50,786 bases of DNA from Girardia tigrina. Taxonomy: Eukaryota. The position numbers and the translations under genes are program-made. The notes beneath the pieces were generated by a model. The model ran no database searches. It saw only the letters and a list, made by a program, of their open reading frames with translations, and was not told where the DNA came from. The stretch is from assembly GCA_001938485.1 (NCBI GenBank), contig MQRK01243815.1, positions 27,616-78,401 of the forward strand, in the 5' to 3' direction. Positions 24,977-50,786 of this stretch are shown here, piece after piece. How positions within the stretch are numbered: the first letter of the stretch is position 1; each line of letters opens with the position of its first letter.

Positions 24977-25137
24977 TACATTTCAAATTAAATATTGTTT
25001 ACTTAATACTGTTTATAAAAGATTCCAAATTTATAAATAAAGTTAAATAATAACTTATTTCAAAATATATGTATTAAATGAAAAATTCTCAATTTAATAT
25101 GAAAAATTCTAACAATTTTAAATTTTATTTCATTCAG

Positions 25138-25381
25138 GTACTGTGTTTCAAGAATTTGAAGAAGGTCGTATTACGTTCATGCCAACCTACAAGTTTATTA
25201 TTGGTAAAAATGAATACCATGAATCTCGTATTCCTGCATACACTGATCGGATACTTTTTCGTAGCCATGTGACTGGAGGAATAGATTATTTATTATATAA
25301 ACCAGTTCAATCTTTTGTTTGTTCTGATCACAAGCCTGTTCAATTAATTTTAGAGGTTTCTATTGCAAGACAGGAGAATGA
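25138..25381 (+). CDS. INPP5E: INPP5E-like exon with second catalytic motif
   Basis: Bounded by ttcAG and GTAAGT. Translates TVFQEFEEGRITFMPTYKF...RIPAYTDRILFR...CSDHKPV (P.Y/WTDRIL and SDHKPV signatures). Confidence 0.95.
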
Positions 25382-25395
25382 GTAAGTCATTAATG

Positions 25396-47915: not shown

Positions 47916-48468
47916 ATGGGTAACAAACATGACTTTTGCAGTTTTGGTAAATATAATGTACAAAAAAGTAAAAAACAAAAGAACAAAAAATCAAGACCGA
48001 TAGACGATGAGTTTTCATGTGATTTTGAGTCTTCTCGGCGAAAAAAACGAAAATCATCAAATCGATTTTCAAATGACAAATCGCCAAGTTCATCCTGTAA
48101 TGTTTCGTTACGATCAAGAGCGCCCAGTAAACTGTTGAATGACGCATTTGAATCTCCGTATGTCAGAAAACATTATTGTGATAGAAACGACAGTCCGAAA
48201 TTAACGACCCCGACCAAAAATCTAGATTTCCAAACATCCTCGAATTTATTTCCAGAGGTAGCGTGTAAAATTGATCGTAAAAAAACGTCTGCTTGCAATC
48301 CAGCCGAATTGACTTCCCGTGACAATACATCCATGAGGTCGTCCTTGGATCAGTTATCAGAGGAAACGTTTGAAAATGATCTCGATATGAATCTCGAATT
48401 ACCTTTTCGGTCAGCAGATTCCCCTAAAGATGAATTGGAAATTCCCGAAGACAGAGATTGGAGTGAAG
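47916..48468 (+). CDS. Probable first coding exon of an unidentified host gene (basic, Ser/Asp-rich, disordered N-terminus)
   Basis: ATG-initiated 184-codon open frame in very AT-rich surroundings, ending at a G|GTAATT donor. NLS-like RRKKRK; no transposon motifs. Confidence 0.6.
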
Positions 48469-48886
48469 GTAATTAATCAATTGAAAATTTCAAAATAAAA
48501 ACAAATTTCGACACTTATTTTAAAGATAATTATTTTAACTATTTCTGTTCTCATTTGGTTATACACCCATTCTTGTTTAGATATGCCATATCGGATTTTG
48601 ATTAGATGTCTTTATGAAATTTAATGTGTTAAAATGCATTAGAATAACTAGCATTTAACTGCATAGAATCCACGATTAAGAATGAAAATCCATAATAATA
48701 TGGATAATCTCAAAATAAATAGTATATTACTTACCGTCAATTTTATCTAAGGTCATTTTATTTTGACATTTTTGTTCAAACCTTTTCTTTAACCTTTCCT
48801 TATACCGCAAATTTCTATCGCACTTGCAGAGGTGGCCCTAGCATGGTACGGGGCTTTGTGCATGCGGCAGAGGGTGCGTAGCTTAA

Positions 48887-49128
48887 CCCATTAACGTCGA
48901 ACGGGAACATTCGTGCCCAGCTAATAAAAATGGCTGTAAAGTAAAGACATTGCATTTAGCTATGTTTCGTTGATAAGGTGTGTACACTGAAGGTTCAGAA
49001 CACATACGGAACATGTTTTGTTTCTCTGTCATCAGGCATGCATGCGCAGTAGCCGGCTGACCTTGACCAAGAAAGGAGTGTATGTAACATGGAAAAATTC
49101 ATATTACATAATTCTCGGCATTAATGGG
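48887..49128. mobile_element. piggyBac-type MITE
   Basis: TTAA-CCCATTAACGTCGA and TCGGCATTAATGGG-TTAA ends. Confidence 0.8.
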
Positions 49129-49283
49129 TTAACCCACGAGGAAAGCAATAATTAACATAATAGTTAATTAATTAGAGTTTTTTCGGTCTGCATTTTTACT
49201 TCTGTAAAATTTTTGATGACAGAGTAACAATGTCATTGTGGTTAGTGGCAAGTAAGTAGGGGAAAAATGTATGTTCGACACCA

Positions 49284-49655
49284 GACCCCCCCCGGGGGGG
49301 GGTCGTTACTAGTTACCGTGGTTGCCATGTTTACGTAACCAGTTACCATGCGGGGTTACCATGGCAACGGTCGCGATCACCTTAGCAACGCTTCTGATTG
49401 GTTCCTGGTTCCCTAGCAACGGTCGCGATTACCTAAAAACACTTCTGATTGGTCGACGGTTCCCTAGCAACGTTCACGATCACCTTAGGAACCGTTCCGG
49501 TTCACGTGGTGACGGTAACCAAGGTCACGGTTCCCAGGGTAACGGTAACCAAGGAACGTTTTTCATTAGCAACGGATACAGTGTTCCAAGGCGGTTGTAA
49601 CCATGGTTATGGTTCCCGCATTCATAGCAACCGTGACCCCGTAACTAAGGACCGT
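49284..49655. promoter_or_regulatory. GC-rich array of RFX X-box-like palindromes and CCAAT (Y) boxes, probably within a repeat element
   Basis: GTTACCATGGCAAC at 49355-49368, two GTTCCCTAGCAAC, GTTGCCATGTTTAC and GTTCCCAGGGTAAC. CTGATTGG at 49394 and 49445. Confidence 0.5.
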
Positions 49656-50411
49656 AGAAAAAAGTGCTAATCGATCACTGCACAGTGTCCAAATGTGCTA
49701 AGGAATATTTTGAAAGTGCTAATCGATAGTGCACATTTTGCCACACATTTCTAATGTGCTAGCCCAGTGCTTTTTAAGTTGCACATGTGTAAAAGTACGA
49801 AAATCAATACATTAAATTTTTTAAAAGTACTAGTGTCAAAAATCGATATCATGTATTTGATGCACATTTTGATTCTCTATTTGAATATGCAATTCAAATT
49901 TTCATATATTGATTACTTTTCTCTATAATTAGCATAATGTTTAAATTTACACAAAGTGCACATTGATTTTAAAGGTACAAGGAAGCAGAATATCAGAAAA
50001 ATGCTCATACACTTGAATAGGAAACTACATACGTACATTCAGATTCCACATCAACATTTTCGAAAAAGTGCTGATAAATCGATTTTTTCAAAAATTTTTG
50101 AAATTCTCAAAAAAGTGCTCAAAAATCTATTTTTTCGTACATATCTGAAACCTCTAGGATATATGTATGTTGTTTACCATCAAACAATACCCCATGAATC
50201 TCCTAATGTACACAAGTATAATCACAGGTACCGTGGTTACCGTAACCAAGATACATAACATTTTATTTTACATGTAAAAACGACATGTATAAAACTCCTA
50301 TTGTACTTTAAACATCAATAGAATACATAACATCTTTACAATCATCTATACAATCATGCACACAAGTATAATCACAAGTACCATGTTATTATTATATTAT
50401 ATATTATATTA

Positions 50412-50610
50412 TCTTATCTTATAAAAGCCCAAGTCACTCACTGCTTCACTAACGCTCATATTATCTACTTACAATTGTAAGTAGATATTTATATTAATAA
50501 TAATTCATATGGAAAATTATTATTAGCAGAATTATTCATGATAATTTTCCATATGAATTATTATTAATATAATTATCTACTTACAATTGTAAGTAGATAA
50601 TATGAGCATT
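50412..50610 (+). mobile_element. Helitron-like head (same as at 14438) followed by a 160-bp palindrome
   Basis: AAAAGCCCAAGTCACTCACTGC...TTCACTAACGCT is shared with 14448-14489. Inverted arms span 50451-50610. Confidence 0.6.
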
Positions 50611-50786
50611 CTTAATTTTGACTTTTTAAGCAAATTTTCGGTTGGCCTTTTGGAATTCAACATTTTCCATTCATTATATTTTTCGGTAGGATTTTCAACA
50701 ATGGCAACTTCTCAAAAGGGTAATTTACTGAATAATGAACGAGTATTTACCAAAAATATAGTTTATAAAGAAATTTTGTGAAGACA

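Follow-up and report, generated by a model that had tools for sequence, protein, structure and literature searches.

Polintons, also called Mavericks (adintoviruses; Alpha-type pfam03175 PolB), are the described elements closest to those reported here. They occur as one piece of 13-25 kb with long terminal inverted repeats (TIRs), AG...CT ends and 6-bp duplications, and their ends begin with (AGT)2. In the Girardia tigrina genome, we found long TIRs, AG...CT ends and 6-bp duplications on two separately inserting elements of about 9 kb, hereafter type A and type B, which end in AGTAGG. The Polinton-like genes are divided between them, with a protein-primed PolB (pPolB) in type A only, and an rve chromodomain integrase, an A32 ATPase, and a double-jelly-roll capsid in type B only. 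Together, A and B hold the usual Polinton/Maverick gene set, as given in the available portions of PMC8097293, PMC8502044, and 10.1101/2023.08.22.554363. Two surveys (PMC8097293; 10.1101/2023.08.22.554363) chose their loci, according to their accessible text, by linked polymerase and integrase genes, and a split layout would thus be skipped by such a requirement. No published split Polinton was found in the article texts available to the search, and the accessible portions of PMC6431247 and PMC12567637 are silent on it.

Segmentation is known among relatives of these elements. Bidnaviruses and the Drosophila Vesanto virus are segmented, carry a Polinton-derived pPolB, and have similar terminal repeats among their segments (PMC8363768; PMC8502044; PMC11161782, in the parts available), one of these reports describing a multi-segment pPolB virus with an ssDNA genome (PMC8363768). 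They differ from A and B by their ssDNA, an unrelated capsid, and, in the descriptions available, the lack of an integrase, whereas A and B are both found as insertions between target duplications, and the pair retains the double-jelly-roll module. The yeast killer/helper linear plasmids (zymocin) likewise consist of two cooperating Polinton-related linear dsDNA elements (accessible text of PMC13348850 and PMC11161782), but they are cytoplasmic, have no virions, do not integrate, and divide their genes differently. RFX sites within a viral terminal repeat also have a precedent, as RFX1 and RFX3 bind the D sequence of the AAV ITR (PMC5760533, available portion); in the TIR described below, the sites are tandemly multiplied and are candidates only. 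In MHC-II modules, X1, X2, and Y boxes act with CIITA, which is required (PMC4381081; PMC4889920; PMC4374748), and NLRC5 targets have a fixed X-Y spacing with the Y box 20-22 bp from the X box (PMC4381081; PMC4374748), as far as the accessible parts of these reports go.

Sequence comparison indicates that the window, the whole 50.8-kb stretch of DNA that was analyzed, holds one truncated element end, probably that of a type-A (polymerase) piece. The preliminary description had reported a feature of about 350 bp; the motif array it comprises is real, but it belongs to a longer TIR that begins at 49255 and extends to about 50410, in which it lies 50-400 bp from the terminus, and the identity of this TIR as the end of a Polinton-type element had been missed. 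The terminus, 5'-AGTAGG... (49255-49269, forward strand), has the identical boundary in 30/30 loci, with a sharp edge at 49255 and unrelated flanks among copies. The six host nucleotides before it (49249-49254, forward strand) are the predicted left half of a 6-bp target-site duplication, by analogy with other copies. A C-run/G-run palindrome (49284-49304, no strand assigned) is found in most copies and may play a role as an origin or in end processing. The outer 1.15 kb or so of the TIR (49255-50411, forward strand) ends in an AT microsatellite, where a different repeat (50412-50786, forward strand) breaks into it, and the contig stops at the window end.

The terminal pattern had 3,932 forward-strand matches genome-wide and 0 in the control, which would correspond to roughly 7,900 ends in the 1.43-Gb genome; the cassette is thus repeat-borne, as had been proposed, and belongs to a TIR with thousands of copies. 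The array stretch gave 4,786 first-look candidates in the same genome, of which 40 were scored, the top matches being 83-96% identical. AGTAGG was present at 61/69 termini, and the window terminus agrees in its first five bases with AGTAGT, the end of the complete Polintons that this genome also contains. In a tree of TIRs, the window copy was closest to a polymerase-bearing copy (L061, 96.7%), and sister copies run on into a longer A-type TIR and the polymerase. Two other identities, a Helitron (one hairpin end, no duplication) and a MITE (no coding capacity), were rejected, since the element has two inverted ends with 6-bp duplications and genes inside. Many short contigs start or stop about 200 bp or less from the AGTAGG terminus, where assembly was probably interrupted by the C/G palindrome.

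For type A, 34 polymerase-bearing contigs were extended from thousands of candidates. The element has 5'-AG...CT-3' ends and a TIR of about 1.7 kb. Its polymerase matched PF03175 above the cut-off (E 1.9e-14) and is thus a protein-primed PolB; the polymerase motifs are present, an endonuclease VII insertion was found, and two Cys-pair repeats stand at the head of the ORF, giving a zinc-finger-like N-terminus. The closest relatives (43-52%) are proteins from other animals and from metagenomes, including a homologue named adintovirus PolB (47%); a PDB sequence search with a polymerase fragment gave no match. All four copies in which both termini were readable showed 6-bp duplications, three perfect and one 5/6: 8,992 bp (ACGGTT), 8,518 bp (CCGTCT/CCGTCG), 7,747 bp (AATAAT), and a deleted copy of 3,955 bp (TCAACA). 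The inner TIR end adjoins the polymerase C-terminus in 18/30 loci. Integrase matches beside the polymerase in two contigs (C178456 and C234810) were traced to nested retrotransposons; two further, unassigned ORFs lie inside the former.

Besides the polymerase, type A recurrently carries just two genes, a small ORF that is often present and a TBP-like ORF seen in five loci. The small ORF is predicted to encode a T7 gp2.5-like SSB with an OB-fold. Its structure model (pLDDT 88) had as its top three fold matches SSBs of the gp2.5 family (4klk, 5odk, and 1je5; Z 8.3-8.7, rmsd 2.9-3.0, 103-110 of 121 residues aligned), and an earlier, poor model (pLDDT 51) yielded the identical top folds. Foldseek alone found nothing at E<=0.001 for this ORF; the Atlas lead was phi29 SSB (score 0.88, 14% of cluster members). 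No relative of the SSB or of the integrase was found when IMG/VR was scanned with an alignment of the former and with the latter. The SSB gene lies upstream or downstream of the polymerase in either orientation (L113, L117, L194, L204), as would be expected if A subfamilies had been rearranged internally. The TBP-like gene (PF00352, E 2e-15; L279:198-680, L204:3989-4420, L215:3291-3723), for which the genome gave 1,614 candidates, is found beside the SSB gene on type A and, in a sister lineage, on the ATPase side. One type-A copy contains an inserted Gypsy-like retrotransposon (L090:865-9643) that encodes a viral fusion glycoprotein domain between gag and pol and in frame with them, resembling the layout of Burro in the accessible part of PMC6431247. 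In another locus (L091:1591-4875), ORFs of 317 and 507 aa, without a Pfam match above the cut-off, lie directly inside a TIR of the AGTAGG family; they had no second copy among the loci compared and may be cargo or represent a third kind of segment.

Type B was reached through an SSB relative from a metagenome that adjoins an ATPase and a chromodomain integrase. The TIR of the window was found upstream of the ATPase in 13/20 genome loci and, once 14 type-B contigs had been extended, on both sides of the module in nine of them. Its order is TIR, ATPase, two small ORFs, integrase, likely penton, small ORF, major capsid, likely protease, and TIR, the TIR being about 0.9 kb long with 5'-AG...CT-3' ends. 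The integrase has rve and Chromo domains and the ATPase is of the Pox_A32 family. The major capsid protein aligned by HHalign (95.9%, E 5.6e-9) with a PF21738-positive, double-jelly-roll capsid; none of the 29 members of its family had a direct capsid match in Pfam. The protease call is based on motifs and a weak Pfam match (PF00770, E 0.041), with no PDB match, and the penton call on gene order and known motifs, with no name from Pfam or Atlas. TIR sequence followed the protease spacer in 36/40 scored copies, a proportion biased by the choice of best matches. One copy (C223974) measures 9,045 bp from end to end, lacks a polymerase, and is flanked by AAGATA/AACATA (5/6), and another (C226144) has a perfect duplication (ATGTTC/ATGTTC); C198431, one of the three type-B copies with both ends, showed no duplication.

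The subterminal array of X-box-like palindromes and half-sites (49305-49655, forward strand) was characterized from the sequence, TRF, shuffles, and copy comparison, and the motifs and their 24- and 25-nt spacings were all found where the preliminary description had placed them. A full X-box palindrome, GTTACCATGGCAAC (49355-49368, no strand assigned), matches the RFX consensus and is the sole strict X-box in the window. Y-box 1, the inverted CCAAT CTGATTGG (49394-49401, forward strand), lies 25 nt past one half-site, and a second X-like half-site in the same unit, missed in the preliminary description, ends just 4 nt ahead of it. An X-box-like site with a 1-nt spacer (49408-49420, forward strand) is followed by Y-box 2, again CTGATTGG (49445-49452, forward strand), 24 nt past a half-site, and CCCTAGCAAC occurs at 49411 and at 49462. 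The reported unit of 51-52 bp repeated about 2.5 times and the units of about 15 bp were recovered by TRF (51 bp x2.4 at 49364-49485; 15 bp x3.5 at 49508-49558). Motif density exceeded chance when 49255-49665 was shuffled 1,000 times with dinucleotides preserved: one strict X-box occurred in 1.8% of the shuffles, whereas four broad X-boxes and two Y-boxes each occurred in 0/1,000. The nearest element gene is >1 kb from the array, and an enhancer or origin role would thus suit it better than that of a core promoter.

Across copies, a strict X-box was present in 61/64 complete arrays (median 3) and a Y-box in 54/64, and the unit copy number varied freely. The spacing is conserved among copies: 92/100 Y-boxes in the 64 arrays lie 24/25 nt past a half-site, so that X1 and Y stand at a fixed distance as in the MHC-II X-Y module, with the difference that the Y-box is optional here. 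In 56 arrays, 38 of which were chosen by likeness to the window and 18 otherwise, the latter 18 had a Y-box in 13 cases and the 24/25-nt spacing for 15/19 Y-boxes. The comparison made earlier was with the HLA-DRA promoter, where an X-box is followed by a Y-box about 25 nt on. An MHC-II-type enhanceosome is not borne out, given that the Y-box is missing from 10/64 arrays and from 7/11 type-B ends (present in 4/11), that no X2/CRE motif is evident after the X-boxes of the array, and that the chance of a half-site falling in the MHC-II slot is about 6-9% at about 1.5 half-sites per 51 nt. The single TGACG (X2/CRE) within the array, at 49510, lies off the X-Y modules, and no S or W box was recognized in it. 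The sequences make cooperation of RFX and NF-Y at MHC-II spacing unlikely to be real, and chances that the array has been selected for RFX-type binding appear about evenly balanced.

The half-site can be written RGYAAC (R: 228 A, 154 G, 5 T; G: 367/387; Y: 300 C, 76 T, 11 other), with variation at the purine and pyrimidine positions and scarcely elsewhere. This variation fits the RFX consensus, and would also fit neutral transitions spread by unit duplication, A/G and C/T changes being the commonest neutral class as well. It is conceivable, though we hold it clearly short of an even chance, that the array is bound by a protein of the element itself, such as the integrase, a part of the packaging machinery, or the polymerase by way of its zinc-finger-like N-terminus, and that its likeness to RFX/NF-Y sites is incidental. 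Packaging and origin signals have to be present at either end of each piece, and the array is; its unit copy number is free to vary, the Y-box is dispensable, and the polymerase ORF is headed by two Cys-pair repeats. However, the sites fit the RFX consensus in their R/Y degeneracy and in having spacers of 1 as well as 2 nt, RFX domains are encoded in the host genome, and the small ORF is predicted to adopt an OB-fold of the ssDNA-binding kind, unlike a sequence-specific dsDNA binder. Host RFX docking at the X-boxes remains the reading that we prefer, and the array may be considered a concrete candidate host-factor site in a Polinton end.

A and B share a common TIR, have complementary gene sets, are each surrounded by 6-bp duplications, and are near-equal in size at about 9 kb. 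Type-B genes were found at 0/106 polymerase loci and the polymerase at 0/66 type-B loci, many of these loci being only about 3 kb long, and no polymerase, SSB, or TBP match was found in any of the 14 extended type-B contigs. Among the matches listed, the polymerase shares no contig with the integrase, ATPase, or capsid, while the integrase and ATPase occur on 31 common contigs and the ATPase also on 1/149 SSB contigs; as these are top-scoring subsets, contig sharing is a weak test taken alone. First-look candidates, which also count members of other families and should not be taken as copy numbers, amounted to 6,914 for the polymerase, 1,718 for the SSB, 1,614 for the TBP-like gene, 1,101 for the ATPase, and 742 for the B capsid. 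The TIRs of the two types are equally alike within and between types (AA 0.875, AB 0.872, BB 0.873). A tree of 430 bp of TIR with 23 A and 20 B rows, from which 11/54 candidate rows without the probed stretch were left out, interleaved the two types, the label changing 12 times where shuffling gave a mean of 14.5, with at least 4 of the 12 changes forced by strong branches, and none of 200 bootstrap trees separated A from B.

We consider it likely that A and B form a bipartite system, the two segments of one split Polinton. The X-boxes of these complementary segments are likely docking sites through which host RFX would serve the expression or replication of the element. The polymerase of A, with its fused terminal-protein region (such a domain is described for Polinton polymerases in the accessible text of PMC11161782), and the predicted SSB would copy both pieces as linear DNA from their common ends. 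The integrase of B would insert both, leaving the 6-bp duplications around A and B, and its ATPase and capsid would package both. Every cis-signal would then have to be on both pieces, which makes the TIR the natural site for origin, enhancer, and packaging signals and would localize those for replication, integration, and packaging to the shared TIR of about 0.9 kb. A stronger version, an obligately bipartite integrating dsDNA Polintovirus whose two segments, one for replication and one for integration and the virion, have RFX-site-rich ends in common, complement each other in trans, are packaged separately, have been amplified to thousands of insertions, and are tied via RFX to one host cell type, is possible at somewhat below an even chance. 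Nearly all A and B copies carry stops, so that the elements may no longer be active.

Observations that count against a split element were also made. Seven type-B contigs were read in their outer parts; in six of them, the middle leaves no room for a polymerase gene of about 3.9 kb, and in the other (C233042), about 3.5 kb is unaccounted for. On C206629, a distance of 1.2 kb separates an ATPase from an SSB of the A type. In a sister lineage, the SSB gene directly adjoins the ATPase (L280, L312, L317), showing that the two gene groups can be linked. A and B might accordingly be two deletion derivatives of a one-piece Polinton whose unsplit master, now rare, lost, or unassembled, supplied both functions; we regard this as rather unlikely. 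With its 255,254 contigs, the assembly is so fragmented that a rare unsplit master could escape detection, the ATPase/integrase module of the sister lineage is linked to SSB and TBP-like genes, and SSB and MCP homologues elsewhere on contigs of identical size (14,185 and 17,960 bp) may hint at one-piece relatives. On the other hand, A and B are exactly complementary, near-equal in size, and uniform in their junctions, TIR subfamilies are common to both types, no joined copy was present among the loci examined, and the complete Polintons found in this genome have other ends and polymerases that are merely 26-44% identical to that of type A over the matched segments.

These complete Polintons were recognized in 6/14 capsid or ATPase neighbourhoods as TIR pairs starting AGTAGT, five with readable 6-bp duplications, and no X-box was found in the first 600 nt of the six. 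By their sequences, they are a family distinct from A and B. An integrase-less satellite of the AGTAGT Polintons was considered for the window element and dropped, since the TIR of the window is also on the integrase/capsid element. In the AGTAGT Polintons, the terminus recurs in inverted orientation about 165-220 bp inside the TIR (L142:8214, L145:9106, L150:85, L155:5139, L160:1507), and each of their ends would thus be able to fold back. If the two-segment interpretation of A and B is true, this mutually dependent pair would constitute a segmented dsDNA virus-transposon that is invisible to linkage-based surveys, and might represent a stage between Polintons on one side and helper-dependent linear plasmids or segmented pPolB viruses on the other.

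It had also been proposed that the cassette acts as a mobile enhancer or drives a transposon, with a ciliary gene, INPP5E, 17 kb away; the transposon half of this proposal is the likelier, while the ciliary enhancer is without support, and the INPP5E-like exon (best PDB match 2xsw, E 5.6e-13) was found at 25122-25382, about 24 kb off. A mobile RFX/NF-Y enhanceosome regulating ciliary host genes such as INPP5E is very improbable, for although the motifs and their spacing are real and conserved, the exon lies within the window, and the host has RFX and NF-YA domains, the window copy is a single end among thousands that are nearly identical, it shows nothing special and matches a sister copy at 97% identity, the exon is separated from it by several other transposons, with about 7,900 ends in 1.43 Gb (one per about 180 kb) a neighbour at 24 kb would be unremarkable, and the MHC-II module requires X2/CREB and CIITA (PMC4381081, accessible part).

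Other features were observed near the element end in the window. A 242-bp element with short inverted ends and TTAA on both sides, resembling a piggyBac MITE (48883-49132), lies 120 bp to the left of the TIR. The repeat that breaks into the TIR at 50412-50786 begins with TC and an AT-rich tract, also breaks into another locus (L028), contains a 73-bp inverted repeat of 96% identity (50451-50610), and is presumably Helitron-like. Finally, an ATG-initiated frame of 185 codons without a Pfam match (47916-48469) runs up to a GT donor, and the Polinton end may lie within an intron of this frame.
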